Source of the DNA: an uncultured Gemmatimonadaceae bacterium | Lineage (GTDB): Bacteria > Gemmatimonadota > Gemmatimonadetes > Gemmatimonadales > GWC2-71-9 | Assembly (NCBI GenBank): GCA_964465315.1 | Contig: CAYXIK010000008.1 | Location: forward strand, 21,735 to 85,734 | Length of the DNA: 64,000 nucleotides | Reading direction: 5' to 3' | Shown: positions 3,640-58,932 of the stretch, in pieces | Numbering within the stretch: the first letter of the stretch is position 1 | How the letters are laid out: every line of letters starts with the position of its first letter | Notes under the pieces: generated by a model | Told to the model about the DNA's origin: nothing | The model's database searches: none | Seen by the model: the letters and a program-made list of their open reading frames with translations, nothing else | Made by a program: the position numbers and the translations under genes

Positions 3640-5187
3640 GTGAGACCTTTTCGTCTACTGGCGGCAGCCGCGGCGCTCGCCGCGTCGGCCCCGTGCCCCG
3701 TTCACGCCCAGGAGCTGACCGTCGACACGGCCGGCGCCGGCGTACTCATCGATCAGGCGTTGAACCACTCGCAGGTGATGGAAAATCTCCAATACCTGAC
3801 GGACGTGATCGGTCCCAGGCTCACCGGGTCGGCCGCTGTGCGCCGCGCGAACGATTGGACGCTCGATCGCTTCAAGAGCTACGGGCTGGACGGACGCCTC
3901 GAGGCCTGGACGTTCGGGGGCACCTGGACGCGAGGTCCGATTCGGGTGCGGCTGGTGGCGCCGCGGGCGCACGATGTGACGGCCGCGAGCTGGGCCTGGG
4001 CCCCAGGGACCGGCACGGGAGGAGCCACGTGGACAGGTCCGGTCGTCCGGATCGACGCGACCACCCCGGACAGCTTCGCCATGTACCGAACCCGGGTGAA
4101 GGGCGCGTGGGTTATGACGCGCGCGCCGGCGCCCGTCTGGAATGGCGACGGCCCCGCCATGTCCGCGGCCGACTCGCAGAGCCAGCGGGAGTATTTCCGC
4201 AACGTCTTCACGCCGTTCCGGGACGCGGACTCGCTCACGCGGGCCCGCATGCAGCAGTTCGCGAACGACGTCCCGTTCCTGCTGCAGCGCGCCGGCGCGC
4301 GCGGCATCGTGCTCGACGCCGGCAAGGAGCACGCGCTCCTCAACATGAGCGGCTCGCCGAATCGCATCCTCCCTCTCCCGCAGATCGTGGTAGCGCACGA
4401 GGACTACGCGATGTTCGATCGCCTGCTCCGCGCAGGCACCACACCGCGGCTCGCCGTGAGCGTCACGAACGAGCTCACGCGTGACTCGGTCGCGCAATGG
4501 AACACCGTCGCGGAGATCCGCGGCAGCGAGCGCCCGGGACAGGTGGTGATCGTCGGCGGGCACCTCGACTCCTGGGACCTGGGCACGGGCACCACTGACA
4601 ACGGCACGGGGGCGATGTGCGTGCTCGAAGCGGCGCGCGCGATCGCGCAGTCAGGCTTGAAGCCCAGGCGGACGGTGCGCTTTGTTCTCTTCACGGGTGA
4701 AGAGCAGGGACTCATCGGCTCGCGCAAGTACGCCGAGGCGCACGCCGCCGAAGCCGATTCGATCCAGGCCGTCATCGTGCTCGACAACGGCACGGGCGCA
4801 ATCACGGGACAGGCACTGCAGGGGAGGACGGATCTCGAGGCCCTGTGGCGCGCCCTCCTGGCGCCGGTCGCGAGCCTGGGTGCTGACTCGGTCGTGAACC
4901 GCACCAAGGGCGGCACCGACCATCTCTCGTTCCTGCCGTACGGCGTGCCGGGCTTCAACTTCAACCAGCTCGAGCGCGGTTACAACCACACGCACCACTC
5001 GCAGTCGGACACATACGACATGGTGATCCGGGCCGACCTCACGCAGGCGACGGCCGTGATGGCGGTATCCGCCTACGAGCTCGCGAACCTCTCGGCCCTC
5101 ATCCCGCGGGGCGAGCGGACCCCACCGATGCCGGTGGAAGCGGTGAAGGTCAGCGACAGCTTGTTGGTGAAGGGGAAGCGGCGTTGA
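3640..5187 (+). CDS. Exported M28-family metallopeptidase (carboxypeptidase Q-like, PA insert)
   Basis: Signal peptide; Zn ligands GHLDSWD, DNGTG, GEEQG, TDH, HHSQSD. Confidence 0.9.
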   Translation: MRPFRLLAAAAALAASAPCPVHAQELTVDTAGAGVLIDQALNHSQVMENLQYLTDVIGPRLTGSAAVRRANDWTLDRFKSYGLDGRLEAWTFGGTWTRGPIRVRLVAPRAHDVTAASWAWAPGTGTGGATWTGPVVRIDATTPDSFAMYRTRVKGAWVMTRAPAPVWNGDGPAMSAADSQSQREYFRNVFTPFRDADSLTRARMQQFANDVPFLLQRAGARGIVLDAGKEHALLNMSGSPNRILPLPQIVVAHEDYAMFDRLLRAGTTPRLAVSVTNELTRDSVAQWNTVAEIRGSERPGQVVIVGGHLDSWDLGTGTTDNGTGAMCVLEAARAIAQSGLKPRRTVRFVLFTGEEQGLIGSRKYAEAHAAEADSIQAVIVLDNGTGAITGQALQGRTDLEALWRALLAPVASLGADSVVNRTKGGTDHLSFLPYGVPGFNFNQLERGYNHTHHSQSDTYDMVIRADLTQATAVMAVSAYELANLSALIPRGERTPPMPVEAVKVSDSLLVKGKRR

Positions 5188-5717: not shown

Positions 5718-7346
5718 ATGAACTCTATTCCTCCGATCCCAGCCCCGGTCAACGAGCCCGTCCTGAGCTATGCGCCCGGTGCTCCCGAGCGGGCGGAGCT
5801 CAAGCGCACGCTCAAAGACCTCTCCAGCCGTCAGCTCGACGTCCCCCTGATCATCGGTGGCCGGGAGGTCCGGACGGGGACCACGACCGATGTCGTCATG
5901 CCGCACTGCCACCACCACGTTCTCGCGAAGGTCCAGCAGGCGGGTCCCGCAGAGGTGCAGGCGGCAATCGCGGCCGCGCTGGACGCCTGGCGTGAATGGT
6001 CCGGATGGGGGTTGGAACGCCGGGCCGCGATCTTTCTCAAGGCCGCGGATCTCCTTGCGACGCGATATCGGCCGATCGTGAACGCGGCGACCATGCTCGG
6101 GCAGTCGAAGACCGCTCATCAGGCGGAGACCGACGCGGCCTGCGAGCTGATCGACTTCTTCCGCTTCAACGTCCACTACGCCGAGCGGATCTACGCCGAG
6201 CAACCGCTCTCCGTGGCGGGCGTATGGAATTACCTCGACTTTCGCCCGCTCGAAGGGTTCGTGTATGCGATCACGCCCTTCAACTTCACGTCCATCGGCG
6301 GGAACCTGCCCACGGCGCCGGCGATCATGGGCAATACCGTGGTGTGGAAACCCGCGGCGACATCGGTGCTCTCGAACTATTTCATCATACGATTGCTGGA
6401 GGAAGCGGGTCTTCCGCCGGGCGTAATCAATTTCGTCCCCGGCCCATCGGCGCAGGTGTCCGAGCGCCTGTTGGCCGACCGGGCCTTCGCCGGTATCCAC
6501 TTTACCGGCTCGACCGAGGTGTTCCAGACCCTGTGGAAGCAGGCGGCCGCGAACCTGACGTCCTACGCGACCTATCCGCGCCTGGTCGGTGAGACGGGAG
6601 GGAAGGACTTCGTGCTGGCGCACGAGAGCGCCGACGCGGACGCGCTCGCGACGGGGCTCGTGCGTGGCGCCTTCGAGTATCAAGGTCAGAAGTGCAGCGC
6701 GGCGTCCCGCGCCTACGTCCCGGACGCAATCTGGCCACAGGTCCGCGATCGGATGCTGGCGATGCTGGCGGAGGTCAAGGTGGGCGACCCCGCGGACTTC
6801 CGCAATTTCATGGGAGCGGTGATCGACCGGAAGGCGTTCGACAAGATCAAGGCCTACATCGATGCCGCGAGGCGCGCGCCGGGGGTGAACGTGCTCTTCG
6901 GCGGCGGTGCGCACGACTCGGACGGCTACTTTATCGAGCCCACCGTGCTCGAGAGCCAGGATCCGACGTACCGCACGATGTGCGAGGAGATCTTCGGCCC
7001 GGTGCTCACCGTGTACGTGTACCAGGCCGCGCGCTGGTCCGAGACGCTCCGCGTGGTGGGCGAAACATCGCCCTACGCCCTCACCGGCGCCGTCTTCGCG
7101 CAGGATCGACGCGCGGTGGAGGAAGCCAAGCAGGCGCTCCGATACGCGGCGGGCAACTTCTATATCAACGACAAGCCCACCGGGGCGGTCGTAGGTCAGC
7201 AACCCTTCGGCGGAGCCCGCGCCAGCGGCACCAACGACAAGGCGGGCAGCCTGTTCAACCTGATTCGCTGGGTGAGCCCGCGGGCGGTCAAGGAGAACTT
7301 CATCCCGCCCCGGAGTTTCACCTACCCGTTCATGGCCGAGTCGTGA
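5718..7346 (+). CDS. pruA: L-glutamate gamma-semialdehyde (P5C) dehydrogenase
   Basis: NEPVLSYAPG, PFNFT, FTGST, GETGGKDF, catalytic GQKCSA, EEIFGP, NFYINDKPTGAVVGQQPFGG. Confidence 0.93.
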   Translation: MNSIPPIPAPVNEPVLSYAPGAPERAELKRTLKDLSSRQLDVPLIIGGREVRTGTTTDVVMPHCHHHVLAKVQQAGPAEVQAAIAAALDAWREWSGWGLERRAAIFLKAADLLATRYRPIVNAATMLGQSKTAHQAETDAACELIDFFRFNVHYAERIYAEQPLSVAGVWNYLDFRPLEGFVYAITPFNFTSIGGNLPTAPAIMGNTVVWKPAATSVLSNYFIIRLLEEAGLPPGVINFVPGPSAQVSERLLADRAFAGIHFTGSTEVFQTLWKQAAANLTSYATYPRLVGETGGKDFVLAHESADADALATGLVRGAFEYQGQKCSAASRAYVPDAIWPQVRDRMLAMLAEVKVGDPADFRNFMGAVIDRKAFDKIKAYIDAARRAPGVNVLFGGGAHDSDGYFIEPTVLESQDPTYRTMCEEIFGPVLTVYVYQAARWSETLRVVGETSPYALTGAVFAQDRRAVEEAKQALRYAAGNFYINDKPTGAVVGQQPFGGARASGTNDKAGSLFNLIRWVSPRAVKENFIPPRSFTYPFMAES

Positions 7347-7939
7347 GCGGGGGGGGCCCACGGCCGCCCATCCTCGTGCTGGTGATGGGCGGCGTCTTCG
7401 TGCTCCTCGTGGCGTCGCTCCTGATCGGATCGCTCACACGCCCTGAATTCCCCCCGTTCGCGCTCACGCGGCCGCGCCCCACGCCGGTGGGTGACTCACT
7501 CGTGGGTCCGGCCACCTATACGGTGGACGCGGCCGCCACGGACCGCTGGCGGACTTTCGATTTCGGACGCAACGCCGCCGTGGACTCGGGTCCGTGGGAC
7601 ATCGCGTTCCGTCGCTTTCATCTGATCACCGCCCCCGGCGGCGGCATCCTTGATCTCGGCACGGTGCCGTTCGACTCGGTGCGCGAGCTCCCGGCGACGG
7701 GCTACCTCCCGAACACCGTCGGGTCCGACACCACCAATCCGGGTGTGGGCAAGTGGTATGCGTACAGCATGCTGAGCCACCTCCTCACGACCAAGCACCA
7801 CGTGTTCGGAGTCCGCACGCCGGCCAAGAAGTACGCCAAGCTCGAGCTGTTGGCCTACTACTGTAAAGACGCCGGGACGGCCTGCATCACCTTCCGGTAC
7901 GCCTACCAGGGCGACGGGAGTCGACGCGTCGCTCCGTAA
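7343..7939 (+). CDS. HmuY-family heme-binding protein with an N-terminal membrane anchor
   Basis: GTG overlaps the pruA stop (GTGA); WDIAFRRFHL, YAKLELLAYYC, ITFRYAY. Confidence 0.72.
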   Translation: MSGGGPRPPILVLVMGGVFVLLVASLLIGSLTRPEFPPFALTRPRPTPVGDSLVGPATYTVDAAATDRWRTFDFGRNAAVDSGPWDIAFRRFHLITAPGGGILDLGTVPFDSVRELPATGYLPNTVGSDTTNPGVGKWYAYSMLSHLLTTKHHVFGVRTPAKKYAKLELLAYYCKDAGTACITFRYAYQGDGSRRVAP

Positions 7940-8745: not shown

Positions 8746-10296
8746 ATGAGAACCGTCGGGTTGTTCCGTCTCCGTTTCGTCCTGCCGGTCCCCCTGCCGC
8801 TCCTCGCCCTGGCCTGCGTTTCCGAGCACGGACCACTCACCAACCGCATGGCGCAGTCGGCCACGCCATACCTGGCGCGCGCAGCCAAGCAACCGGTCAG
8901 TTGGCAGCAGTGGAGTCGCGACGCGTTTGCGCTCGCCGCGCGCCTCGACCGGCCCGTTCTCCTTTATATAGGAGCCGATGATTGCCGCTGGTGCGGCGTC
9001 ATGGACCGCGAGGTGTACGGGGACCCGCTGCTCGGCGCCTTGATCGATTCACTCTTCGTTCCGGTGCGCGTCGACCGCGACGAGCGTCCCGACGTGGCGC
9101 AGCGGTTTGCGACGGCGGTGCAGCTCCTCGCCGGCCTCCGCGGCTACCCCATCACCGTTTTCCTGACGCCCGACGGCGCCGCATTCTTCGGCGGCACGTA
9201 TTTCCCGCTCGACGACCCTGTAACCGGCCGCGGTCTGAAGCAGCTCTTGCCCGAAGTGGCGAAGAGCTATCGCGAGCAACGCGCGTCGGTGTTTCGACGG
9301 GCGGAGCTGATCCGGCAACTCTCGCTCGGACGTCCCGCGGCAGCCGGGGCGCTCAAAACGGCGCGGCTGCAATTCGAGACCACCGTCGTCCGGGACGCGG
9401 TTGCGGCGGCCGCCCAGGCTGGCGCCGACCTCGCGACGTTGCGCTACATCCGTGCGGCCGATCTGCTGCTGGCGACGTACGCACGCACGACCGATTCCAG
9501 CTACCTCAACCCGGCGCGAGCCGTGCTCGCCTACATCGCGGATTCGGGCGAAGGTGGGCTCGCCGGGGCCGCGCGCGACGACCCGCCGGAGATTCAACGC
9601 GCTGGGTGGCTCCACGATCTGACCGTGGCGTGGGCCGCCACGGCCGACGCGCGGTATCGCGACGAGTCGCGGGTCGTCGCCCGTCGGCTGGCCGCCGAGG
9701 TAGCCTCCCCGGTGGATCGGACGGTGTTCACAGACCGCGACGCGTACGTGATCAGCTCGGTACTCGACGCAGCCGCCGCGCTCGGCGACTCGGGGACCGT
9801 GGCACGCTCGCGCGCCACCCTCGATACGCTGCTGCGACGCGTGTACGCGCGCGGTCGTCCTGTGCGGCACACGGTAGGCGGCGGCTCGTCGGGGCGCGCC
9901 CTGCTCGACGATCAGGTGCAGGTGGCGTGGGCGTGTCTGGCGGCCCGAGAGGCCACGGGGGCGCGACGCTACCTCGAGATCGCGCAGGACCTGGTGGTGG
10001 TTTTGGAGCGGGATTTCGCCGACTCCACGTCGCCGGGCTACTTCGAGGCGGCGGCGACCGATCCGGCGGCCCCGGCGCTCATCGAGCGGACCAAGCCGGT
10101 GCTGGACGATTTGCTACCGGCGGGTAACGCCACGGCCGGGCGCGTGCTGCTGCGGCTCGCCGGTGCCACGGGGCAGGCGAGCTATCGACGGCGCGCACAG
10201 GCGCTGGTCGATGCGCTCGCGCCGGGCGTTACGGGGGCGGGGTTGCGCGCATCCAGCTATCTCGCGGTTGCGCAGGACCTCCTTCGCAGCCACTGA
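8746..10296 (+). CDS. DUF255/YyaL-like thioredoxin plus alpha/alpha-barrel lipoprotein
   Basis: Lipobox LALAC; TNRMAQSATPYL, CRWCGVMD, VDRDERPDV, GYPITVFLTPDG, FFGGTYFP, LLDDQ. Confidence 0.8.
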   Translation: MRTVGLFRLRFVLPVPLPLLALACVSEHGPLTNRMAQSATPYLARAAKQPVSWQQWSRDAFALAARLDRPVLLYIGADDCRWCGVMDREVYGDPLLGALIDSLFVPVRVDRDERPDVAQRFATAVQLLAGLRGYPITVFLTPDGAAFFGGTYFPLDDPVTGRGLKQLLPEVAKSYREQRASVFRRAELIRQLSLGRPAAAGALKTARLQFETTVVRDAVAAAAQAGADLATLRYIRAADLLLATYARTTDSSYLNPARAVLAYIADSGEGGLAGAARDDPPEIQRAGWLHDLTVAWAATADARYRDESRVVARRLAAEVASPVDRTVFTDRDAYVISSVLDAAAALGDSGTVARSRATLDTLLRRVYARGRPVRHTVGGGSSGRALLDDQVQVAWACLAAREATGARRYLEIAQDLVVVLERDFADSTSPGYFEAAATDPAAPALIERTKPVLDDLLPAGNATAGRVLLRLAGATGQASYRRRAQALVDALAPGVTGAGLRASSYLAVAQDLLRSH

Positions 10297-10942: not shown

Positions 10943-11547
10943 TCATGATCGACCCAAGGATTCACCAGGCGTTGGACGGCGAGCTCCCGACGGATGCCCT
11001 GCCGGCCGAGCTGCGTCGAGCCGCGCAGACGGTCCGGGCGGCCGCCGATCTGTTGGCTGCGCCCGTCCGGGGTCCGAGCCTCGAGTCGCGTGTCATGACC
11101 GAGGTCCGCCGCCCGGCGCCGTCGCTACTGCGCCGGGTGGCGAGCTGGCTCGCGACACCCCACGCCGTCACGTTCCGCGTCCGGCCCGTCTGGAGTCTCG
11201 CCTTCGCGACGGGCGCGGCCGTGTTCACCCTGTTCTTCGCCGGCGACGCCGGACCCCGGCTCGGCGAGCATGAGGGCATTGCCCAGTTCGTCGGCCGGTT
11301 TCCGAACGCACGGTCGGTGCACGTGGTCGGAACGTTCAACGACTGGCGGCGCGGCAGCATCGCGCTCGAGGACCTGCACCACGACGGCGTATGGACCGCC
11401 ACCGTGGTCCTGCCGACGGGCACCTACGAATACATGTTCGTGGTAGACGGAGAACGGTGGGTCCCCGATCATCTGGCGGACCGCTTGGTGGCCGACGATT
11501 TCGGCCGGGAGAATTCCGTCGTGATCGTGCGGCCGGTCCATCGATGA
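10939..11547 (+). CDS. Putative anti-sigma factor: N-terminal ASD, one TM, C-terminal CBM48/AMPK-type glycogen-binding domain
   Basis: ATGA overlap with sigma; IHQALDGEL; TM; ARSVHVVGTFNDW...GVWTATVVLPTGTYEYMFVVDGERWVPD...DDFGRENS. Confidence 0.8.
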   Translation: MIMIDPRIHQALDGELPTDALPAELRRAAQTVRAAADLLAAPVRGPSLESRVMTEVRRPAPSLLRRVASWLATPHAVTFRVRPVWSLAFATGAAVFTLFFAGDAGPRLGEHEGIAQFVGRFPNARSVHVVGTFNDWRRGSIALEDLHHDGVWTATVVLPTGTYEYMFVVDGERWVPDHLADRLVADDFGRENSVVIVRPVHR

Positions 11548-12209
11548 GACTTGCGGTTGCACTGGCTCTGCTCGCGGCGCCCCTCGCTGCCCAGTCGGTG
11601 CAGAGCCGGCTGGAGGGCCGGATTCCGAGCGACGCGGTGCCGGTGGTGGACTCGCTCGTCCAGGTCGCGCTCCACGACGGCCTGCCTTCGGAGCCGCTGG
11701 TCCAGAAAGCACTCGAGGGCGGCGCAAAGCAGGTGCCCGGCCCACGCATCGTGGCAGCCGTGCGGGTGAGCCTCGGACAGCTCCGCGAGGCGCGCGACCT
11801 GCTCGTTCGTGCCGGCGATCAGCCGCCGGTGCGACCTGGGGAGGTGACGACCGTTGCCTGGGCGTTGCGCCGGAAGCTGCCCTCCTCCACGGTCGCGCGC
11901 GTCATCGCCGAACTCCCCCATCCGCCGCGGGCGGCAGCGATCCACGCGATCGCGGACCTGGTTGCCCACGGATTTGATCCCGACTCGTCCGCCGGGTTGA
12001 TCATCGATGCGGTCCACAATGGACTGCAGCGCGATCGCCTGTTGGACGTGTCGACGGCGGCGCTGCACGAAGTTCAGCGCGGGCGTACGCGAGACGAGGC
12101 GATCGCCGTCGTCCGGCACCAGCTCCCCAACGTCCCCGGGCCTCCCAAGCCGGAGCGGGGCACCGTGACCCGGGCGCGCCGGCCGGACAGCACGACTACG
12201 CCACGATAA
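11544..12209 (+). CDS. Exported alpha-helical hypothetical protein
   Basis: ATGA overlap; signal peptide MRLAVALALLAAPLAA. Confidence 0.72.
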   Translation: MRLAVALALLAAPLAAQSVQSRLEGRIPSDAVPVVDSLVQVALHDGLPSEPLVQKALEGGAKQVPGPRIVAAVRVSLGQLREARDLLVRAGDQPPVRPGEVTTVAWALRRKLPSSTVARVIAELPHPPRAAAIHAIADLVAHGFDPDSSAGLIIDAVHNGLQRDRLLDVSTAALHEVQRGRTRDEAIAVVRHQLPNVPGPPKPERGTVTRARRPDSTTTPR

Positions 12210-12341: not shown

Positions 12342-12551
12342 ATGATGCGTCGCACGCTCCTCGCATTGGCGCTGCTCGCCGCTCCCGCGATCGTGATCGC
12401 GCAGCAGCCGTCGCCGATGCAGGGCCAGGCGCCGTCGGCGGATACGTCGAAGGCGATGGCGAAGAAGGGTAAGAAGCACGCTGGGAAGAAGCACGCGGCC
12501 AAACCCGCGGCCAAGCCCGCTGCCAAGGATACCAGCAAGGCCAAGCCGTAA
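12342..12551 (+). CDS. Small exported Lys/Ala/His-rich protein (69 aa)
   Basis: GGAGGT RBS, signal peptide, KKGKKHAGKKHAAKPAAKPAAK. Confidence 0.75.
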   Translation: MMRRTLLALALLAAPAIVIAQQPSPMQGQAPSADTSKAMAKKGKKHAGKKHAAKPAAKPAAKDTSKAKP

Positions 12552-15472: not shown

Positions 15473-15834
15473 GAACCCTCCGGGTGGATGGCTTGGGTCA
15501 CGGGGCCCCGCCGGCGCGCGCCGGTGCGGACTTCGCGCGCCCCGAAGCGTTTGACGATCACGTCGAGACCCCGCTGTGGTAGGGCACCGCCCAGACCCGC
15601 TACGTCGACGAAGCACAGTCCCGCCTCCGGCAAGCCGTGCAGGGCGACGTGCCCGCCGTGGCACACGAGCGCCGCCGAGACCCCTCTCGGCCCGAGCTTC
15701 ACGACCGGCGGGTTCGCCGGATTCAATCCAGCGGCGTTCGCCGCTGCGAGCAGCACGCCGGCGAGCGCCTGGTCGTCGGTGAGGCGGTTCGCGGGGATGC
15801 CTCCCAGATCAGCGAAGACGTGGTCGAACGTCAA
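15469..15834 (-). CDS. AdoMet decarboxylase (SpeD)-fold protein lacking the E-S autocleavage site
   Basis: TTG start overlaps the upstream stop; HVFADLGG...GPRGVSAALVCHGGHVALHGLPEAGLCFVDV aligns by eye with SpeD [28 protein letters not shown]. Confidence 0.68.
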   Translation of the reverse strand: MTFDHVFADLGGIPANRLTDDQALAGVLLAAANAAGLNPANPPVVKLGPRGVSAALVCHGGHVALHGLPEAGLCFVDVAGLGGALPQRGLDVIVKRFGAREVRTGARRRGPVTQAIHPEGS

Positions 15835-16961
15835 CCGCTGCAGCTTGCCTGATAGGTGAGCAGCGGAGCCACGAACGTTCCCCGGATGACTTCGGCGCCC
15901 AGCGGATCGTCGTACAGATCGGTGCGCTGCGCCGTGAACTGATAGCGGCCGCTGATGATCGCCCCACCGCCCGCCGCCGGGGCGTACTGCGTGATGATCA
16001 ACTGTCCCGCGACCTGACTGCTCGACGTGCCGTGCGAGTAGGAGCGGATGCCCGGTGTGGGAAGCGCGCTGAACCACAACGCCCAGGGCCGCTTCGGCTG
16101 GCAGAAGGCGCTGAGTTGACTGATCGTGGTCGTCGCCTCCGCCGGGCTGATCGAATCGATTTCGTACGTACCCGTAGCGATCACCGAGTCGGGCAAGGTG
16201 ATCACGACCTTCTCGTCGATCGTGGAGCCATTGGCCAGCGTGTCGCGCAGTTGAAACGCCAGCTTCCCGTTCAACCGCTGGTAATTGCGCGCTCTGGCCT
16301 GGCCGCCCTGATGCCGCACCGCGGACCCGAGCGCCGTCATGAAGAAGTGCCCGACCTCGGTCGTGTCGGTCAGTGTGAGCACAACGACGAAGCTCGACTC
16401 GGAAACGGTGGTGGTGCCGTCGGTCAGATGCGCGCGGTAGCGGATCGGACCGCCGGTGGCGTGGGCGGTCACCTCGCCGCTCAGGGTGTCGATCGTGATG
16501 ACACTCGGCGTCGTGGAGCTGTCGAATGTGAGCGTCGTCGGACCCGGGGTCCTCTGTTTGATGGCGCGCGGGATCGTGATCGTATCGCCCGGCATCACGA
16601 AGATCGTGTCGAGCAGCAGGCTCAGGTCGAGGGGACGCGATACGACGACGACGGCCCCACTCTGCGCGCCGGCCACCGTGGCGACGACCACCGCCGTGCC
16701 CCGCCCGATCCCCGCGACCTTCCCCGACGTATCGACGGTGGCGACCGTCGGCGGACTGACGCTCCACGTGATGTGACCTGGAGGATGCCGGCTGCCGTCG
16801 CTGTCGAGGATGTACACGGTTCGGGGTGGGAGCGTGTCTCCCACGAAGGTCGAGTCAAGAACCGGGCCGATGATCAAGAACTGCTGGCCGGTGCCGGAGA
16901 CGTTCACGCAAGTCAGGGAGGTGGATGCGACGAGGAGGAGCGCGAACAAGGATCGTTTCAT
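15831..16961 (-). CDS. Lipoprotein with Ig-like (Big_2-type) domains
   Basis: Lipobox SLTC; ITWSVSPPTVATVDTSGKVAGIGRGTAVVVAT. Confidence 0.75.
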   Translation of the reverse strand: MKRSLFALLLVASTSLTCVNVSGTGQQFLIIGPVLDSTFVGDTLPPRTVYILDSDGSRHPPGHITWSVSPPTVATVDTSGKVAGIGRGTAVVVATVAGAQSGAVVVVSRPLDLSLLLDTIFVMPGDTITIPRAIKQRTPGPTTLTFDSSTTPSVITIDTLSGEVTAHATGGPIRYRAHLTDGTTTVSESSFVVVLTLTDTTEVGHFFMTALGSAVRHQGGQARARNYQRLNGKLAFQLRDTLANGSTIDEKVVITLPDSVIATGTYEIDSISPAEATTTISQLSAFCQPKRPWALWFSALPTPGIRSYSHGTSSSQVAGQLIITQYAPAAGGGAIISGRYQFTAQRTDLYDDPLGAEVIRGTFVAPLLTYQASCSG

Positions 16962-20046: not shown

Positions 20047-20364
20047 ATGGGCGACACGTCAGACGAAGTGTACGGTCCGGAGCGCGCAAAGCGTCTGCTG
20101 GCGCTGCTGCGCGGTCTGGCGGAGCGGATTCAGTCGCTGGACGGAAGCGGGCAACTGCTCGAGCGGGTGCCGGAGCTGCAAAAGCTGCTCGGGAACGCGC
20201 GCAGCGAGCTGTTCCACTATGAAGTGCGACTCACGTACGATACTCCGGAAATCGCGGAGAGCCGGCGCCTCGTCGAGGAGGCGGAGCAGCGGGCGTTGGA
20301 CGCGACGGCCGGTTTCGAGGACGAGGAGGACGACGAACCGTGGCGGAGGGCTCGGGACGAATGA
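20047..20364 (+). CDS. Acidic helical hypothetical protein
   Basis: GGAAGG RBS; ATGA overlap with the dsbA-like gene. Confidence 0.65.
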   Translation: MGDTSDEVYGPERAKRLLALLRGLAERIQSLDGSGQLLERVPELQKLLGNARSELFHYEVRLTYDTPEIAESRRLVEEAEQRALDATAGFEDEEDDEPWRRARDE

Positions 20365-21014
20365 ACCGGTTCTATCTGCTGCTCGTGGCGGTGGCGCTCA
20401 TCGGTGGCGGCATGCTCTGGTACGGATCCCGGCAAGAGGCTGCACCGGCTCCGAACGCGCCGGTTCCGGTCGCGGCCGCGGACGGGTTCCAGGGCTTCAC
20501 CCTGGGCTCGGACTCCGCGAAGGTGGAGGTGACGGAGTACTCCGACTTCGAGTGCCCGTTCTGCGCGTCGTTCGCCACGGTCCAGATGCCGGTGATCCGC
20601 CAGCAGCTGATTGCCACCGGCAAGGTGCGCTGGCGGTATCGCGACTTCCCGTTGCCCACCCACCAGTACTCTCGGTACGCCGCGCTCGCGGCCCAGTGCG
20701 CGGGTGAGCAAGGGAAGTTCTGGGAGATGCACGACCAGCTCTTCGCCAATCACCAGTGGGCCCAAACCGGGAAGAACCCCTCGGCGCTGTTCCGTGATTT
20801 CGCGAAGACCATCGGCCTAGAGGTCGACAAGTACGACGCCTGCATGGACGGCCAGCGATACGCCGGGCGAATTCAGGCGAGCGTGGAGGAGGGGGAGAAA
20901 CAGGGCGTGCGGGGCACGCCCAGCTTTTTCGTGAGCGGCCACCCCTTTCGGGGACGCGCCACCTCCGACGACTTCAAGGCCCTGGTCGACAGTCTGACAA
21001 CAAAGCACAAGTGA
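20361..21014 (+). CDS. DsbA-family thiol-disulfide oxidoreductase
   Basis: N-terminal TM; EYSDFECPFC; RDFPL; cis-Pro GTPSF. Confidence 0.9.
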   Translation: MNRFYLLLVAVALIGGGMLWYGSRQEAAPAPNAPVPVAAADGFQGFTLGSDSAKVEVTEYSDFECPFCASFATVQMPVIRQQLIATGKVRWRYRDFPLPTHQYSRYAALAAQCAGEQGKFWEMHDQLFANHQWAQTGKNPSALFRDFAKTIGLEVDKYDACMDGQRYAGRIQASVEEGEKQGVRGTPSFFVSGHPFRGRATSDDFKALVDSLTTKHK

Positions 21015-42424: not shown

Positions 42425-45400
42425 ATGAAACGCTTTGTGTGGTCGATCGGCGCTCTCGCCGCGGTCATGGTGTTCGTGACCGGCCGTCCCGCTTCGGCGC
42501 AGGGGGTCTCGTCGTCGGCCGTGGCGGGTCGCATCACGGACGAGTCGGGACAGCCCGTCGCCTCCGGTTTGCTCACGCTGACCAACGGTTCCACGGGACA
42601 GCGGTACTCGGCGCGTACACGCGACGACGGGCTCTACTCCTTCGAGAACGTGGACGTGGGCGGCCCATATACAATGGCAGCACGCGCCCTCGGGTTCGAG
42701 CCCAAGACGTCGACGCCCTTCAACCTGCAGTTGGGGCAGCGTTTCACGCTCGACCTGAGCCTCAAGCGGGCCGCCGTTGAGCTCGCCGGAGTGATCGTCG
42801 AGACGTCGTCAAATCCATTGCTCTCGGCGGCGCGGACCGGAGCGCAAACGCTGATCTCGGATTCGGCGTTGCGAAGGCTTCCAACGTTGAACCGGGCGTT
42901 CAACGACTTCGTCAACACGGCACCCCAGATCGTGAAGACGCCGGGCGGCGGCACGTCGTTCACGGGCCAAAACGACCGGTTCAATAACATCCAGATCGAC
43001 GGCACCGTGAACAACGACCTCTTTGCCCTGGGCGCGAGCAATCAAATACCGGGCGGCGGGGTCAACGCACGCCCGCTCTCGATCGAGGCGGTGAAGGAGT
43101 ACCAGGTGCTGGTCGCGCCGTTCGACGTGCGGCAGGGCGGCTTCGTGGGTGGGCTCATCAACGCGGTCACCAAGTCCGGCACCAATGAGTTCCACGGCTC
43201 CGTGTTCGGATACCTGCAGAACGAAAACTTCGTCGGCTCCGATACCAACGGCGTCTCGGTACCCGTGGCGGATTATCAGCAGCAGCAGTACGGCTTCTCG
43301 CTTGGTGGCCCGATCATCCGGGATCGGCTGCACTTCTTCGTCACCGGCGACTTCCGCCACGACAACCGTCCGTTTGCGACGAGCATCCAGCTGGGACCGA
43401 GCGGTGATACGACCGGCGTCGGGATCACGCAGGCACGGTTCGATTCGGTTCAGAACATTCTCTTGAACCAGTACGGCATCAGCGCCGGTGACTTTCGGGC
43501 CCCGCAGATCAACAACCCGGAGACCAACCTGTTTGGAAAGCTGGATCTCGAGTTGAGCACCAACAGTCATATCGAGCTGTCCGGGACGTTGGTGAATGTG
43601 AATCAGGACAAGCTGATTCATACGTATCGGTTGGGATTCATACAGCCGCCATCGCTGTCCAACCTCAGGGATGGCTACGAGCTCTCAGGGAGCGGGTACT
43701 ACGTGAAGGACGAGACCCGCACGCTGCGAGGGAAGTGGACCACGAACTTTGGGCCGCGGTACTCGAACGAGCTGATCGTGGGGCGGACGACGATCGGAGA
43801 CAACCGGCCGCCCCGCAGCAACCACCCGCTCATTCTCGTCGGCGGCAACTCCCCCGGCACCTACATCGCCGCGGGCGGCGAGCGCTTCTCGCAGGCGAAC
43901 TCGCTCGATCAGCGGGTGGTGGAAGTCACGGACAACCTGACCTTTCCGGTGGGTGAGCATCTCCTGACGCTCGGCACGCACAACGAGTTCATCCACTTCC
44001 GGAATGTCTTCTTCCCGTTATCCGTTGGTGTGTGGAATTTCGCGAACCCTGCGGCACTCGCCGCCGGTACGCCGAACGAGTACGCTCGGGCCCTGCCCGG
44101 GCCACTCCGCCCCGACGGCCCAGTGGCGGACTTCAACGTGACGCAAGTCGGGTTCTATGGGCAGGACCGCTTCTCACCGGCCCCGAATCTCACGGTGACC
44201 GCGGGACTCCGGATCGACGTGCCGTCCCTGCCCGCACCGGCGTTCAACACCGCCCTCGACACAGGGGTTGTGTTCCCGGCGCTCGGCACCGGGGTCGATA
44301 CGCGGTCCTCACCGAGCGGAAACATTCTGTGGTCTCCGCGCCTCGGCTTCAACTACGATGTAAACGGTCGACAGGAGACGATTCTGCGGGGCGGCATCGG
44401 GATATTCAGTGGCCGCCCGCCGTACGTTTGGGTGTCAAACGCGTACGGCAACACAGGGCTCGAGCAGCAGACGCTGTTCTGTAACGGTGCGGCGTCCGCG
44501 GCCAACAACGGGTCTCTGGTGGACACCGTGCCCGCGTTCACGGTGGACCCGAACAACCAACCGACCAAGTGCGGCGGGACCAACCAGGTCGGGCCGAGTG
44601 CCGCCGCGAGCTCGATCGTGACCTACGATCCGAACTTCAGGTTCCCGCAGGCCTTTAAACTCGCGCTCGGCGCGGATCGCGCCCTGCCGTGGAACCTGTT
44701 CGCGACCGTGGACTTCGTGTACACCAAGGCAATCAATCAGTACTACCTGCAGGACATCAACCTGCAGGGCATCCAAGGAGCCTCGTTCGGTGAGGCTGGC
44801 CGCCCGCTGTACGGCACCATCAACCCCGCGACCGGCTCGGCGAGCGTATTACGTGTCACCAACCGCGCGAACGACGTCGTCCTGAACAAGAACGTAAGCA
44901 AGGATCAGTCGACGTCGCTGGCCTTTCAGGTCCAGAAGCGATTCAGCAACGGCATCGAGTTTATCGCGGCGTACACGTACTCCCACTCGCTCGACATCAT
45001 GTCGATGACGTCCGACATCACGAGCTCGAACTTCCAGTTCGGGGCGTTGGATGGAACGATTGAAAACCGAAACCTGCGCACGTCCTCGTTCGATCGGCCT
45101 CACAAGGTCTCGATCAGTGGCACCGTGAACGGGCCATTCGGCTCTCGGTTCTCGCTGATCTACAACGGGTTATCCGGGACACCGTTTACCTATGTGGTCA
45201 GCGGGGACGCGAACGCCGACGGTGTATTCGGCAACGACCTCGTGTACGTGCCCAAGAACCGGGCGGACATCACGATGGACGGGAACGGTGGCTCCGTGGC
45301 GGGGTTCGGCACCGCGGCACAGCAGGATTCGGTCTACAACCTCCTCAACTCGTACATCAGCAACGAGCCGTGCCTGGCCAACAACCGTGGGCGGCTGCAG

Positions 45401-45718
45401 CCGCGGAACGCCTGCCGCAACCCATGGCAGAACTACCTGAATGCCCGGCTGAGCTGGGCGATCCCAACCCTGTCCGGCCACACCCTCGAGATCACGGCCG
45501 ACATGCTCAACGTCCTGAACTTTATCAACTCCGGTTGGGGCCTGATCCGGCAGACAGGGACCGGCTTCGAGGAGCAGAACTTGATCCAGCAGACCGGGTA
45601 CGATGCGGCGAATGGGCGGGGGATCTACGCCCTCGCTATTCCGGTGAAGAACGCGGTGACGCTCAACAGCATCGGCTCGCGGTGGGTCTTCCAGCTGGGG
45701 ACGCGCTACACGTTCTGA
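42425..45718 (+). CDS. TonB-dependent receptor (Oar-like, N-terminal carboxypeptidase-regulatory-like domain)
   Basis: Signal peptide; plug NNIQIDG...NDLF, FDVRQGGF.GG.INAVTKSGTN; C-terminal QLGTRYTF. Confidence 0.92.
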   Translation: MKRFVWSIGALAAVMVFVTGRPASAQGVSSSAVAGRITDESGQPVASGLLTLTNGSTGQRYSARTRDDGLYSFENVDVGGPYTMAARALGFEPKTSTPFNLQLGQRFTLDLSLKRAAVELAGVIVETSSNPLLSAARTGAQTLISDSALRRLPTLNRAFNDFVNTAPQIVKTPGGGTSFTGQNDRFNNIQIDGTVNNDLFALGASNQIPGGGVNARPLSIEAVKEYQVLVAPFDVRQGGFVGGLINAVTKSGTNEFHGSVFGYLQNENFVGSDTNGVSVPVADYQQQQYGFSLGGPIIRDRLHFFVTGDFRHDNRPFATSIQLGPSGDTTGVGITQARFDSVQNILLNQYGISAGDFRAPQINNPETNLFGKLDLELSTNSHIELSGTLVNVNQDKLIHTYRLGFIQPPSLSNLRDGYELSGSGYYVKDETRTLRGKWTTNFGPRYSNELIVGRTTIGDNRPPRSNHPLILVGGNSPGTYIAAGGERFSQANSLDQRVVEVTDNLTFPVGEHLLTLGTHNEFIHFRNVFFPLSVGVWNFANPAALAAGTPNEYARALPGPLRPDGPVADFNVTQVGFYGQDRFSPAPNLTVTAGLRIDVPSLPAPAFNTALDTGVVFPALGTGVDTRSSPSGNILWSPRLGFNYDVNGRQETILRGGIGIFSGRPPYVWVSNAYGNTGLEQQTLFCNGAASAANNGSLVDTVPAFTVDPNNQPTKCGGTNQVGPSAAASSIVTYDPNFRFPQAFKLALGADRALPWNLFATVDFVYTKAINQYYLQDINLQGIQGASFGEAGRPLYGTINPATGSASVLRVTNRANDVVLNKNVSKDQSTSLAFQVQKRFSNGIEFIAAYTYSHSLDIMSMTSDITSSNFQFGALDGTIENRNLRTSSFDRPHKVSISGTVNGPFGSRFSLIYNGLSGTPFTYVVSGDANADGVFGNDLVYVPKNRADITMDGNGGSVAGFGTAAQQDSVYNLLNSYISNEPCLANNRGRLQPRNACRNPWQNYLNARLSWAIPTLSGHTLEITADMLNVLNFINSGWGLIRQTGTGFEEQNLIQQTGYDAANGRGIYALAIPVKNAVTLNSIGSRWVFQLGTRYTF

Positions 45719-48517: not shown

Positions 48518-49441
48518 GTGACCACTCGAAAGAGCCGCGTAAGGCGCCCCCCCCTGGCCGCCTGCCTCGCGCTCGCCGTTGCCTGCACGGCAAAGAGCGG
48601 GGCCGTCCGGCCCCATGAGTTCGGCGGGCAGCGCGCCTTTGGCTACCTCGAGCGTCAGATGCAGTTCGGCCCGCGCATTCCTGGCACCCCCGCCCACGAG
48701 CGCACCGGAGACTGGATCCTCGAGCGGCTCCGCGCCATGGCGGATACGGTGGTCGTGCAGTCCATCACCCACGTCACGCGCCGGGGCCAGACCCTGCACC
48801 TGCGCAACTTCCTCGCGCGGTTCCGGCCCGCCGCCACCGACCACGTCCTCCTCCTCGCCCATTGGGACACGCGCCCGCACGCGGACCAAAGTCCGAACCT
48901 GGGGCAGCAGCGCTTACCCGTTCCCGGGGCCAACGACGGCGCCTCGGGCGTCGCGGTCCTTCTCGGCGTGGCGGACGCGCTCAAAGCCAAGGCGCCCGGG
49001 ATGGGCGTCGATCTCCTGTTCGTCGACGGCGAGGACTACGGCGACTTCGCGACCGACACGAACGACGTCCTCGTCGGTTCCCGATACTTCGCCGCCCACC
49101 AGCCCCCGGGCTATCCGCCTCTCTTCGCCGTGCTGTTCGATATGGTGGCCGACAAGGACCAGCAGTTTTACTACGAAGCCAACTCAGAGGCGTTCGCTCC
49201 GGAAGTCGTCGATCGGGTCTGGCACGTTGCGGCGGATCTGGGCTACAGTCGCGTCTTCATCCCCGGCGTGAAGCACAACCTGACCGACGATCACGTCGCG
49301 CTGCAGAAGGCGGGCATCCACGCGATCGATGTCGTGGACTTCGACTACCCGTACTGGCATACGACGGACGATACGATCGACAAGGTGAGTGCCGCTTCCC
49401 TCCAGGTCGTCGGTGACGTGGCGGTGGCCTTGGTCCGCTGA
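48518..49441 (+). CDS. M28-family lipoprotein (glutaminyl cyclase-like)
   Basis: Lipobox LAVAC; AHWDTR, GANDGASG, DGED, DMV, WHTTDD. Confidence 0.88.
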   Translation: MTTRKSRVRRPPLAACLALAVACTAKSGAVRPHEFGGQRAFGYLERQMQFGPRIPGTPAHERTGDWILERLRAMADTVVVQSITHVTRRGQTLHLRNFLARFRPAATDHVLLLAHWDTRPHADQSPNLGQQRLPVPGANDGASGVAVLLGVADALKAKAPGMGVDLLFVDGEDYGDFATDTNDVLVGSRYFAAHQPPGYPPLFAVLFDMVADKDQQFYYEANSEAFAPEVVDRVWHVAADLGYSRVFIPGVKHNLTDDHVALQKAGIHAIDVVDFDYPYWHTTDDTIDKVSAASLQVVGDVAVALVR

Positions 49442-49619: not shown

Positions 49620-50030
49620 ATGGACGACCGCCGCGCCGCCCTTCTACTCGCCTGCCTCACGCTCGCGGGCGCCGGCGTGCGCCTCGCGCTCGCGCCGTCC
49701 ACGGAGGCCGCGCCGGGCGACGTCCGATTGGTCGCGTTGGACACACCACCAGCGAACGGACTCCGCGCCACTGCGCGCAACGCCGCGCGGCTCGCGCGCC
49801 CGCTCTTGCCAGGCGAACGCGTCGACCTCGACCGAGCCGACGTGACGGAGATCACGCGCCTGCCGCGAATCGGGCCCGCCTTCGCTCAGCGGATCGTCGC
49901 CTGGCGCGAGCAACACGGTTCCTTCGGCGGGCTTGCGCGATTCGACAGCGTGCCGGGCGTCGGTCCGAAGCTCCTCGACGCCCTCCGACCCTACGTGATG
50001 TTTTCGGGGGTATCGGCGCCCGCGCCTTGA
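49620..50030 (+). CDS. comEA: ComEA-family helix-hairpin-helix DNA-binding protein
   Basis: N-terminal anchor; VDLDRAD...LPRIGP...FDSVPGVGPK. Confidence 0.8.
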   Translation: MDDRRAALLLACLTLAGAGVRLALAPSTEAAPGDVRLVALDTPPANGLRATARNAARLARPLLPGERVDLDRADVTEITRLPRIGPAFAQRIVAWREQHGSFGGLARFDSVPGVGPKLLDALRPYVMFSGVSAPAP

Positions 50031-50054
50031 CTTCCCTTCGCCGCCACGTATGTT
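50027..50054 (+). promoter_or_regulatory. Putative sigma70 promoter TTGACT-N16-TATGTT for pilBTC
   Basis: Overlaps the comEA stop and abuts ATG 50055. Confidence 0.4.
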
Positions 50055-51787
<1,733 letters not shown>

Positions 51788-51791
<4 letters not shown>

Positions 51792-52951
51792 CGGCTGGCG
51801 CGTCGCAAGGGCTCAATCTCCGCTCCCTGCTCGAGGAGATGATCGAGAAGGACGCTTCGGACCTGCACATCGTCGCGGGTGAGCGTCCCAAACTCCGCGT
51901 CGACGGGGACATCGTGAACGCGGGCGTCGACGCCGTCCTCACGCCAAAGGACACACTCTCGATCGCCTACTCGGTCCTCACCGAGAACCAGAAGAAGCGG
52001 TTCGAGACCGAGAACGAGCTCGATTTCTCGTTCGGGATCCAGAACCTCGCGCGCTTCCGCGGCAACTGCTTCAAGCAGCGCGGGTGCGTGTCGCTCGTCA
52101 TCCGGCAAATCCCGTTCAACGTGCGGACCTTCGAGGAACTGGGGCTGCCGCCGGTCGTGGCCAAGCTGGCCGAGAAGCCGCGCGGGCTCGTCCTCGTGAC
52201 AGGGCCCACCGGGTCAGGCAAGAGCACGACCCTCGCCGCGATGGTCGACAAGATCAACAAGGAGCTGAAGGGCCACATCATCACGGTGGAGGACCCGATC
52301 GAGTTCATCCACCGCCATCAGGCCTGCATCGTCAACCAGCGGGAGATCGGGACCGACACGAACAGCTTCGCGTCGGCGCTCAAGTATGCGCTGCGGCAAG
52401 ACCCGGACGTGGTGCTCATCGGCGAGATGCGGGACCTCGAGACGATCGCCGCCGCCCTCACCATCGCGGAGACGGGGCATCTCGCCTTCGCGACGCTCCA
52501 CACCAACTCGGCGATGGAGAGCATCAACCGCATCATCGACGTCTTCCCGTCGCACCAGCAGGCCCAGGTGCGCGCGCAGCTGTCGTTCGTGCTGGAAGGC
52601 GTCATTACCCAGACGCTCCTCCAGAAGATCAAGGGTCGCGGCCGGGTGATGGCGGCCGAGATCCTGGTGATGACCCCAGCAGTCCGCGCGCTGATCCGCG
52701 ACGAGAAGATCGAGCAGATCCCGTCGATGATGCAGGCGGGCAAGAAGCACGGGATGCAGACTCTGAACGACGCGCTCTATCAGCTGTACGTGGGCCGCGA
52801 GGTCACGAAGGACGAATGCCTGCGCGTGACATCGACGCCGAACGAGTTCCTGCGGATGATCGGCGAGCAGCCCATGGACGAAAAGGACGTGCTGTCGCCG
52901 ACCGCGGCGCCGCAGCAACCCGGCGCCGGCAAGGTCGCGGCTCGTCGTTAA
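51788..52951 (+). CDS. pilT: Type IV pilus retraction ATPase
   Basis: ASDLH, GPTGSGKST, TVEDPIE, ALRQDPD, AETGH, ATLHT. Confidence 0.95.
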
Positions 52952-52972
52952 GCGCCCGGAAGGGAGTGAGCC

Positions 52973-54178: not shown

Positions 54179-54203
54179 CGGGTCCGGGCAGACGTCAGCA
54201 GTG

Positions 54204-54231: not shown

Positions 54232-54236
54232 GCGCA

Positions 54237-58314: not shown

Positions 58315-58932
58315 CTAGGGGACGGAGGGCGCGGGCGGCGGCTGGTTGGGATCCGCGCCCGCCAGATTCGGAAGCTCGAGCCACTGCCGCGGAAAGCGCG
58401 GTAGGAACTTCACGTGGCGGTTCACCACCGCCTGCACGCGTCGCCACCAGCATACGATCGGGCCGCGGGTGTGGCCCACGCTGACCACCGCGAAGGGAAT
58501 CGAGTCCGCCACCACGGTGCGCAGGTCGGGCTGGCTGAGCGAGCACAGGTCCTCCGGCGTCTTCACACCGAAGCTCGAGTCCGGTCCCGCCCAGACGTGG
58601 TTGTGCCAGACCGCTAGCGTCCCGGGCGCGCACGGCAGTGGCTCGACGTGATCCGCCGCGGAGCTCACCACGTCAGGCATCACGAACTCGCGCACCAGCG
58701 CCGTATCACCAGCTGTCGTCCCGTGGAGGCATAGCACCACTTCGCGATCGAGGCCCGCTGCGAGCAGGCTGATCCGGCGGAGCAGCGAGGGGGCGATAAC
58801 CAGGCGCTTGAGGGGTTGGGACGCGAGGATCGCCGAGTCGGCCGGGGTGAGGGCGGCCTGAGCCGCCGCGATGCTCGGCAGCAGCAGCGCTACGACCATC
58901 TGCCAGACCGAGACCCGAGGCGCGAGCGGCAT
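58315..58932 (-). CDS. Exported protein with a JAB/MPN+ (JAMM)-like motif
   Basis: Signal peptide; LVIAPSLLRRI...REVVLCLHG; LAVWHNH; SLSQPD. Confidence 0.62.
   Translation of the reverse strand: MPLAPRVSVWQMVVALLLPSIAAAQAALTPADSAILASQPLKRLVIAPSLLRRISLLAAGLDREVVLCLHGTTAGDTALVREFVMPDVVSSAADHVEPLPCAPGTLAVWHNHVWAGPDSSFGVKTPEDLCSLSQPDLRTVVADSIPFAVVSVGHTRGPIVCWWRRVQAVVNRHVKFLPRFPRQWLELPNLAGADPNQPPPAPSVP

Follow-up and report, generated by a model that had tools for sequence, protein, structure and literature searches.

General O-glycosylation is known from the Bacteroidota, where it has been described for the LFG locus of Bacteroides fragilis as well as in Tannerella, Porphyromonas, and Flavobacterium, and the Gemmatimonadota are usually placed next to the Fibrobacterota-Chlorobiota-Bacteroidota (FCB) group, which contains the Bacteroidota. 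A 2025 review describes sequon-directed O-glycosylation as unique to Bacteroidota, with the transferase, the core flippase, and the ligase undiscovered (PMC12871550). In the glycoproteomes reviewed there, Asp before the modified residue is near-obligatory, Ser is slightly preferred, and the residue after Ser/Thr (+1) is L, I, V, T, A, S, or M, with N, E, Q, P, and D at <1% (PMC12871550). We analyzed a 64-kb stretch of DNA from an uncultured Gemmatimonadaceae bacterium (contig CAYXIK010000008.1), referred to below as the window. The initial annotation of the window had noted that Asp is often followed by Ser or Thr in its exported proteins, above all in a probable lipoprotein encoded at 15831-16961 (the focal protein), and had proposed an analogous O-glycosylation system with candidate enzymes at 62858-64000. 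Judging from the sequence comparisons below, positive and purifying selection both act on the tripeptide D-(S/T)-(I/L/V/T/A/M) in the Sec-exported proteins and lipoproteins of Gemmatimonadales. On balance, the tripeptide is probably the acceptor sequon of a general periplasmic O-glycosylation system that would work like the one in Bacteroidota, to which it is possibly homologous. We found nothing in the open literature or in preprints that links Gemmatimonadota to protein O-glycosylation or glycoproteins.

Sequon excess in exported proteins

Genes in the window (68% G+C) were called with a self-trained codon model, and D-S/T dipeptides were counted in each product. Every hand count of the initial annotation was reproduced exactly. 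Asp is followed by Ser or Thr in 12 of 19 cases in the focal protein (minus strand), 10 of 30 in the M28 peptidase, 15 of 83 in the BNR protein, 4 of 10 in the exported protein at 58315, and 2 of 2 in a small K/A-rich exported protein. The corresponding counts for cytoplasmic proteins are 1 of 34 (PilB), 2 of 19 (PilT), 1 of 25 (PruA), and 1 of 21 (HemB). The cluster that had been reported from the C-terminal part of the BNR protein (PDTVP, ADTST, PDTAH, GDTVR, QDSVA, GDSAV, and ADSLD) was found at residues 771 to 978. Over the whole window, Ser or Thr follows 23.3% of Asp residues in exported proteins versus 8.0% in cytoplasmic proteins (Fisher test, p = 1.6e-9).

Composition was corrected for by shuffling the residues within each protein, using the mature parts of 11 exported proteins. 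D[ST] was observed 64 times versus 38.2 expected (z 4.9), and D[ST][AILMTV], hereafter the canonical sequon, 41 times versus 15.1 expected (2.7-fold, z 6.6). D[ST] followed by any other residue occurred 23 times with 23.0 expected, a ratio of 1.00. The window excess is confined entirely to the three-residue form that defines the Bacteroidota sequon, and the earlier remark that the next residue is often A, L, V, I, or T is borne out by these figures. The control ratios in the same proteins were 0.73 for E[ST], 0.86 for N[ST], 0.98 for [ST]D, and 1.15 for the reversed tripeptide; over all E and N variants and reversed controls in the window, ratios ranged from 0.3 to 1.5 with |z| of about 2 or less, and none was enriched. 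In 39 cytoplasmic window proteins the sequon was found 21 times versus 24.4 expected (0.86), and the ratio for membrane proteins was 0.74. With the focal protein removed, the remaining exported proteins still held 32 sequons versus 13.2 expected (z 5.6). Correction for Ser/Thr content had been named beforehand as a test able to refute the proposal, and the excess persists after it. The accompanying caveat, that the lipoprotein is rich in Ser and Thr, does not account for the signal, because the shuffle excess persists also without this protein and because exported and cytoplasmic proteins differ in the Fisher test.

A uniform pipeline, consisting of self-trained gene calling, a heuristic classifier of signal peptides, lipoboxes, and transmembrane segments, and within-protein shuffles, was applied to the window, to its relatives, and to genomes of other phyla. 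It returns the observed/expected ratio of the sequon for exported and cytoplasmic proteins. All relatives of the focal protein in reference genomes come from Gemmatimonadales metagenome-assembled genomes (MAGs), at 87 to 39% identity. The results were as follows.

Window: exported 2.48 (z 7.0), cytoplasmic 0.75
Close relatives, MAG loci L001-4: exported 2.84, cytoplasmic 1.36
Distant relatives, MAG loci L005-7: exported 3.22, cytoplasmic 0.99
80 soil-metagenome contigs, one representative per 50%-identity cluster: exported 70 versus 25.0 expected (2.8-fold, z 9.6), cytoplasmic 1.20
Gemmatirosa kalamazoonensis, 300 kb of two megaplasmids: exported 151 versus 85.4 expected (1.77-fold, z 7.8), cytoplasmic 0.74
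Pooled non-redundant set, 138 exported proteins, 40,869 amino acids: exported 260 versus 127.8 expected (2.03, z 11.8), cytoplasmic 0.82
Indioceanicola (Alphaproteobacteria, 64% G+C): exported 0.72
Sphingobium (Alphaproteobacteria): exported 0.97
Granulicella tundricola (Acidobacteriota, 200 kb): exported 1.00
Hymenobacter (Bacteroidota, L014-L016): exported 0.54
Persicobacter (Bacteroidota, L022-L024): exported 0.45
Parabacteroides (Bacteroidota, L026-L028): exported 0.61, cytoplasmic 1.05

G. kalamazoonensis is an independent, cultured member of the phylum that shows the signal. In the exported proteins of the 80 soil contigs, D[ST] followed by other residues is down to 0.49. In the pooled sets, Ser or Thr follows Asp in 15.7% of cases in exported versus 7.9% in cytoplasmic proteins (p = 1.5e-17), and the next residue is one of AILMTV at 66.7% versus 43.5% of the D-S/T sites (p = 1e-7). 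The excess is present in signal peptidase I substrates, lipoproteins, and N-terminally anchored proteins alike, and the per-protein ratio has a median of 1.67, which is still 1.61 without the most enriched 10% of proteins. Sequon density in exported proteins is 5.7 to 7.9 per 1,000 residues in Gemmatimonadales versus 1.4 to 2.5 in every other sample. With the same pipeline, no sequon excess was found in exported proteins of the Alphaproteobacteria (two genomes) or Acidobacteriota (one genome). These controls show that the excess is lineage-specific and does not come with export or beta-rich structure in general. The statistical signature and its specificity for compartment, lineage, and position are direct observations.

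The depletion in Bacteroidota was strongest in proteins of at least 450 amino acids but was also found for small proteins, and it persisted when the expectation was taken from species-level amino acid frequencies. The known system is therefore not marked by enrichment in general, and we rested the comparison with it on the anatomy of the sequon instead. Such depletion is in line with the proposal by Veith and colleagues of "negative selection" acting on outer-membrane barrels, type IX secretion system cargo, and surface lipoproteins of P. gingivalis (PMC8729774). The depletion contradicts the statement that the sequon is enriched mainly in Bacteroidota (PMC12871550).

An origin of the signal in composition, regional heterogeneity, gene calling, or signal-peptide misclassification is very improbable. 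The gene caller and the signal-peptide rule are heuristic, with FabF misfiled as exported, and the focal protein is rich in Ser and Thr. However, the within-protein shuffles remove composition, and the reversed motif and D[ST] followed by other residues share any regional bias yet are not enriched. The signal stays without the focal protein and without the top 10% of proteins, and six other genomes put through this pipeline gave ratios of about 1 or less. Misclassification would only dilute the contrast between compartments, not create it. Mutational or codon bias was ruled out as well, as the signal is missing from cytoplasmic proteins encoded in the same genomes, and so was regional composition bias, on the evidence of the two unenriched control motifs. 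A slight indication of enrichment in small Granulicella proteins (1.9-fold, n = 12) dropped to 1.28, which is not significant, with twice the data. Separately, D-[AG]-[AILMTV] stands at 1.3 to 1.4 times the shuffle expectation in cytoplasmic proteins of Gemmatimonadales (the window, loci L008-L013, and others; z up to 5). This pattern exceeds expectation in some protein classes of other phyla too, as a general tripeptide bias.

Anatomy, conservation, and structure of the sites

The anatomy of the site was derived from 390 D-S/T sites in the exported Gemmatimonadales proteins of the non-redundant set. At +1, I (1.99), L (1.97), V (1.79), T (1.48), A (1.31), and M (1.13) are over-represented, and D (0.21), E (0.21), Q (0.29), R (0.40), N (0.45), Y (0.46), and P (0.55) are under-represented. 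Ser is used more often than Thr (222 versus 168), though Thr is the commoner residue, and Asp is strict, in that variants with E or N are not enriched. Cytoplasmic proteins of the same sets have none of these preferences at +1, for Ser, or for Asp. As read from these sequences, the site preferences of Gemmatimonadales match those found by glycoproteomics in Bacteroidota (PMC12871550) in all three features.

The sites are also conserved. Among exported orthologue pairs of 35 to 75% identity from the soil contigs, the sequon was retained in 88.5% of cases versus 5 to 42% for control tripeptides, a figure from six exported clusters only in which pilins weigh heavily. In cytoplasmic orthologue clusters its retention was 53%, in line with the control tripeptides. 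Between window proteins and their orthologues of 39 to 72% identity, 40 of 60 sequons were kept (controls, 9 to 35%), unevenly by protein, with 6 of 6 in the HmuY-like protein, 27 of 36 in the focal protein, and none of 6 in the DUF255 lipoprotein. The focal family has 286 detectable members, all of about 375 to 385 amino acids, and 117 full-length homologues carry 6 to 13 sequons each (median, 10). In an alignment of 37 diverse members (48 to 87% identity), eight sites are a sequon in 32 to 37 of the 37 sequences, counting Phe or Ser at +1 at two sites. Ser and Thr interchange at these sites and +1 drifts among V, L, M, T, A, and I; site 35, for example, reads DSV in 17 sequences, DSL in 8, DSM in 5, DST in 4, DSA in 2, and DSI in 1. 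The two focal D-S/T sites with a noncanonical +1 residue are not conserved, and five of the seven other Asp residues vary. At +1 the residue thus drifts in size between Ala, Met, and Thr while Asp and the hydroxyl stay fixed, a pattern that the acceptor rule of an enzyme predicts better than a packing constraint does.

The focal gene (15831..16961, minus strand) encodes 376 amino acids with 12 D-S/T sites, 9 of them canonical. Its product is a probable lipoprotein, since it has an N-terminal signal sequence and an invariant Cys17. It consists of tandem Ig-like domains, for which the Pfam match to Big_2 falls slightly short of the threshold, and of a C-terminal beta domain. The AlphaFold2 model is all-beta (mean pLDDT 82, pTM 0.73), and its tandem Ig-like matches in Foldseek are Leptospira LigA (Big_2), S-layer proteins of Bacillus and Geobacillus, and cadherins. 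In the DSSP assignment for the model, four sequon sites fall in loops (D41, D157, D198, and D257), two at the start of a strand (D117/T118 and D125/T126), one at the end of a strand (D268/S269), and two within short strands (D35 and D239). Most focal sites are thus predicted to map to loops or to strand starts and ends.

These positions bear on a purely structural explanation, in which the motif would serve folding and carry no covalent modification, for example, as an Asp cap followed by a beta-strand that starts with Ser/Thr and a hydrophobic residue and is favored in beta-rich exported proteins. Besides the sites at strand starts and ends, it could draw on the apparent coincidence of two focal sites with the conserved G-x-T-x-x-L motif of Big_2 domains, on a sequon-like FADSV at a conserved position of the major pilin, and on the periplasmic loops of polytopic proteins, which are not enriched. 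However, beta-rich exported proteins of Alphaproteobacteria, Acidobacteriota, and Bacteroidota, such as TonB-type barrels and Ig-like repeats, show no excess. Asn and Glu do not replace Asp, and the reversed tripeptide is not enriched. The drift at +1 fits an allowed set of residues better than packing, and proteins of unrelated folds share the signal (peptidases, thioredoxins, a barrel, the BNR propeller, and pilins). We therefore regard a structural motif as quite unlikely.

The focal family also has an invariant RTDLYxDPLG motif (residues 345 to 354) and an invariant C-terminal Cys373, neither of which has a family annotation. The downstream gene (15469-15834) overlaps the focal gene by 4 bases and in turn overlaps a gene for a DoxX-like membrane protein (15083-15472). 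This three-gene order (15083-16961) is kept in the distant relatives L005-L007, suggesting one operon.

The other exported proteins of the window are as follows.

3640..5187 (+): M28 peptidase, exported; 10 D-S/T, 6 canonical
7343..7939 (+): HmuY-like protein, N-terminally anchored or exported; 4 D-S/T, 3 canonical; all retained in orthologues of ~71% identity (6/6)
8746..10296 (+): lipoprotein with a DUF255/thioredoxin domain; 6 D-S/T, 3 canonical; positions not kept in orthologues of 55% identity (0/6)
11544..12209 (+): exported protein, no family assigned; 2 canonical sequons
12342..12551 (+): small K/A-rich exported protein; Thr after 2 of 2 Asp, both DTS with a noncanonical +1
20361..21014 (+): DsbA-like thioredoxin, membrane-anchored; 2 canonical sequons, kept 5/6 in orthologues
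42425..45718 (+): outer-membrane protein, CarboxypepD_reg plus beta-barrel; 8 D-S/T, 5 canonical
48518..49441 (+): M28-family lipoprotein; 4 D-S/T, 2 canonical
54237..57515 (-): BNR/Sortilin-Vps10-type exported protein; 15 D-S/T, 10 canonical; 10 of the 15 between residues 771 and 978
58315..58932 (-): exported protein, called JAB-like in the initial annotation, with no Pfam match; 4 D-S/T, 3 canonical

For 11544-12209, a signal peptide is visible only from the upstream ATG at 11544 and not from the highest-scoring start at 11598. For 48518-49441, the lipobox appears only with the start at 48518, downstream of the highest-scoring start at 48425. Automatic start choice would therefore file both as cytoplasmic.

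Glycosyltransferase genes in the type IV pilus cluster

The candidate enzymes lie at the right edge of the window, directly downstream of pilS- and pilR-like genes. The relevant features are given below; L030, L043, and L046 are the related contigs whose gene maps were inspected.

49620..54178 (+): ComEA-like protein, PilB, PilT, and PilC (type IV pilus genes); order kept in L043 and L046
59184..62149 (+): PilS-like sensor kinase and PilR-like sigma-54 activator; Pfam 6TM_PilS, HisKA, and HATPase_c, and Sigma54_activat and Response_reg
62136..62861 (+): class I S-adenosylmethionine-dependent methyltransferase; Pfam Methyltransf_12/23/25/11; gene order kept in L030, L043, and L046
62894..63592 (+): glycosyltransferase family 2 (GT2) protein of the polyprenyl-phosphate-sugar synthase type (Dpm1/GtrB/AglJ-like); Pfam Glycos_transf_2, 1.8e-33
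63589..64000 (+): glycosyltransferase of the GT-C fold, 5' part (137 codons); the full-length protein is P0123, 501 amino acids, with an identical N-terminus

Enzymes of the Dpm1/GtrB type charge polyprenyl phosphate with one sugar. The best NCBIfam matches of the L030 GT2 orthologue are AglJ (2.3e-31), dolichyl-phosphate-hexose transferase, and PpgS (polyprenyl-phospho-N-acetylgalactosamine synthase), all below the equivalog cutoffs, and there is a weak NCBIfam match to a family for cell surface glycopolymer formation. P0123 is polytopic with tetratricopeptide repeat (TPR)-like structure in its last ~100 residues (AlphaFold2 pLDDT 82.5, pTM 0.84). Its best Foldseek matches are ArnT, STT3, AglB, Pmt1/2, PglB, and ALG9/12, with probabilities up to 1.0 and TM scores of 0.3 to 0.45, and the model predicts a GT-C fold with an acidic motif in the first periplasmic loop. 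This fold was recognized only with the structure model, because a sequence-profile search of the PDB with the GT-C/TPR protein matched the TPR part alone, to the TPR of OGT (2.5e-6). Among 28 GT-C/TPR paralogues, 20 gave weak matches to TMTC_DUF1736 (best E-value, 5e-4, all below the gathering score) and 2 matched PMT_2 (2.6e-6). The DD at residues 29 and 30 is invariant in the family, and the Joint Genome Institute (JGI) annotates several of its relatives as "protein O-mannosyl-transferase." A CxxC pair (C465 and C468 of P0123, alignment A3) is invariant too. The C-terminal TPR part holds two near-invariant ADS[L/I/F] sites, so the putative transferase itself carries conserved sequons.

In 80 related contigs the GT2 gene is followed by two to five tandem GT-C/TPR paralogues, which fall into at least three subfamilies by their N-termini (FALDD, FVEDD, and VFYDDG). 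In the inspected maps the GT-C paralogues are followed by the major pilin and minor pilins and preceded, as they are in the window, by pilB, pilT, pilC, pilS, and pilR. Many others of the 80 contigs also encode pilins. FA-DS(V/I)-KY is conserved in the major pilin, and minor pilins carry one to three sequons. No small flippase-like gene (GtrA, SMR, or MATE) was seen in the gene maps of L030, L043, and L046, and no Wzy_C match was found among the membrane proteins adjoining the pilins or in the window. No homologue was detected with a GT-C family profile in the sampled control loci or the sampled Gemmatirosa megaplasmid loci, and plasmids searched by tblastn with the GT-C fragment and with a full-length paralogue yielded no informative match. 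We found no prior description of a TMTC-like enzyme array next to pilins (49620-64000; loci L029-L108). A GT39 family protein and a DUF2723 protein are encoded on a plasmid of Hymenobacter volaticus (L016:5673-7250 and L016:37527-39809), a member of the Bacteroidota. DUF2723 is the family of animal TMEM260, a protein O-mannosyltransferase, and both plasmid-encoded proteins are GT-C enzymes from the phylum of the known sequon-directed system.

By analogy with the three-component logic of PMC11127046, the GT2 and GT-C/TPR proteins are credible candidate periplasmic protein glycosyltransferases. The claim that enzymes for the system lie at 62858-64000 thus stands as to their kind, while their position inside a type IV pilus cluster leaves room for service to the pilin only and favors such a restricted role no less than a general one. 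Chances are about even that the genes at 62894-64000 act on type IV pilins or on a surface glycopolymer and are unrelated to the proteome-wide sequon. In L030, L043, and L046 they have pilSR on one side and pilA with the minor pilins on the other, and glycosyltransferase genes next to a pilin gene are typical of pilin-specific systems, such as those with TfpO and TfpW of P. aeruginosa. The weak match to glycopolymer formation and the lack of a homologue on the sampled Gemmatirosa megaplasmids point the same way. In contrast, the pilins themselves carry a D-S-V/I or D-S/T-L sequon, two to five paralogues with protein-binding TPR domains suggest several protein substrates, and the JGI labels name relatives as protein O-mannosyltransferases.

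In the general system that we favor, proteins would be exported, a periplasm-facing membrane glycosyltransferase would recognize D-S/T-hydrophobic sites on loops and strand edges, and a sugar would be moved from a polyprenyl-phosphate-linked donor onto the Ser/Thr hydroxyl. The GT2 and GT-C/TPR enzymes at the right edge of the window are of a kind able to carry out this transfer, though they may serve only the sequon-bearing pilins. A more specific version, in which the system shares ancestry with that of Bacteroidota and the sugar is placed by TMTC-like GT-C/TPR transferases fed by the polyprenyl-phosphate-sugar synthase, is rather doubtful.

That the modification would be a glycan, and which enzymes would attach it, we infer; the statistics show selection for D-S/T-hydrophobic with a required hydroxyl, not what is attached. 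The hydroxyl could instead serve another lineage-specific periplasmic factor, whether a nonglycan modification (phosphoethanolamine, phosphocholine, phosphoglycerol, acylation, or phosphorylation) or a protease, chaperone, or sorting signal. We consider this unlikely, since the only known user of exactly this tripeptide, with the same Ser preference and order of +1 residues, is Bacteroidota O-glycosylation (PMC12871550). Furthermore, polyprenyl-phosphate-sugar and GT-C machinery is encoded in the window, and no phosphoform transferase was noticed there.

Several observations weigh against general O-glycosylation at these sites in Gemmatimonadales. The three Bacteroidota samples, meant as positive controls, are depleted (0.45 to 0.61) rather than enriched. 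The predicted periplasmic loops of polytopic membrane proteins have a ratio of 0.65 versus 1.22 for cytoplasmic loops, which is weak evidence, as the topology rule was crude. In the focal protein, GDTL and GDTI appear to overlap G-x-T-x-x-L, presumably a motif of the whole Big_2 family. The gene and signal-peptide calls were home-made heuristics with some clear misclassifications, as with FabF, and many sampled loci are syntenic relatives rather than independent samples. The proposal of an analogous O-linked modification system nonetheless draws support from an excess that is specific for compartment, lineage, and third position and from the direct observation that the sites are conserved in orthologues. 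The points that it does not accommodate as readily are the depletion in Bacteroidota and enzymes that may be pilin-only.

Significance and comparison with known systems

If the sequon reading is true, Gemmatimonadales would represent a second phylum with the same sequon, in far denser use, which would widen the range of bacterial general glycosylation. Genes common to sequon-positive lineages would offer a comparative-genomics handle on the missing Bacteroidota transferase. The exported proteins of the abundant, little-cultured soil Gemmatimonadota would have to be modeled and expressed differently. A confirmed modification would place the Bacteroidota sequon logic in another phylum and on protein classes that Bacteroidota keep free of the sequon, and it would bring along a candidate enzyme class of possible use in tracing the missing Bacteroidota transferase. 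The opposite signs of selection, with enrichment in Gemmatimonadales and depletion in Bacteroidota surface proteins, are a testable evolutionary contrast. Were the version with shared ancestry and TMTC-like enzymes true, it would indicate the enzyme class of the Bacteroidota O-glycosyltransferase and a system older than that phylum.

The Gemmatimonadales sites resemble those of the Bacteroidota system in the identical tripeptide, the strict Asp that E or N does not replace, the slight preference for Ser, and L, I, V, T, or A at +1, with charged residues, Gln, Asn, and Pro disfavored, and in both the signal is limited to noncytoplasmic proteins. They differ in phylum and in use, as the sequon is two- to threefold enriched in Gemmatimonadales, with 6 to 13 copies per 375-amino-acid focal protein, whereas the sampled Bacteroidota are depleted. 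Outer-membrane barrels and pilins carry the sequon in Gemmatimonadales, while such proteins are unglycosylated in P. gingivalis (PMC8729774). In Bacteroidota, a glycan with a Man-linked core and a species-specific outer part is attached to the Ser/Thr, and the LFG-type biosynthetic locus comprises metG, wzx, and glycosyltransferase genes; the Gemmatimonadales sites are predicted from sequence statistics.

As in three-component systems (GtrB-type synthase, flippase, and GT-C enzyme) and in PMT/TMTC systems, a GT2 protein resembling dolichyl- or polyprenyl-phosphate-hexose synthases is encoded beside a polytopic GT-C protein with an N-terminal DD. The combination of a transmembrane domain with TPR is also that of the animal TMTC O-mannosyltransferases (PMC11127046, PMC7801869). 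Unlike in these systems, all family matches lie below curated thresholds, and the inspected contigs hold no GtrA, SMR, or MATE gene. TMTCs, moreover, recognize folded cadherin domains and not a linear sequon.

The systems that act on pilins include the TfpO/PilO oligosaccharyltransferase and the GT-C arabinosyltransferase TfpW of P. aeruginosa and PglL of Neisseria. As in these systems, glycosyltransferase genes directly adjoin the gene for the major pilin within a type IV pilus cluster, and the membrane transferase is predicted to use a polyprenyl-linked donor. In contrast to these systems, the window encodes no O-oligosaccharyltransferase of the Wzy_C type, and several GT-C/TPR paralogues stand in tandem. 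The candidate acceptor motif is likewise not that of a pilin C-terminus or of low-complexity Ala/Pro/Ser regions but is found proteome-wide in exported proteins.

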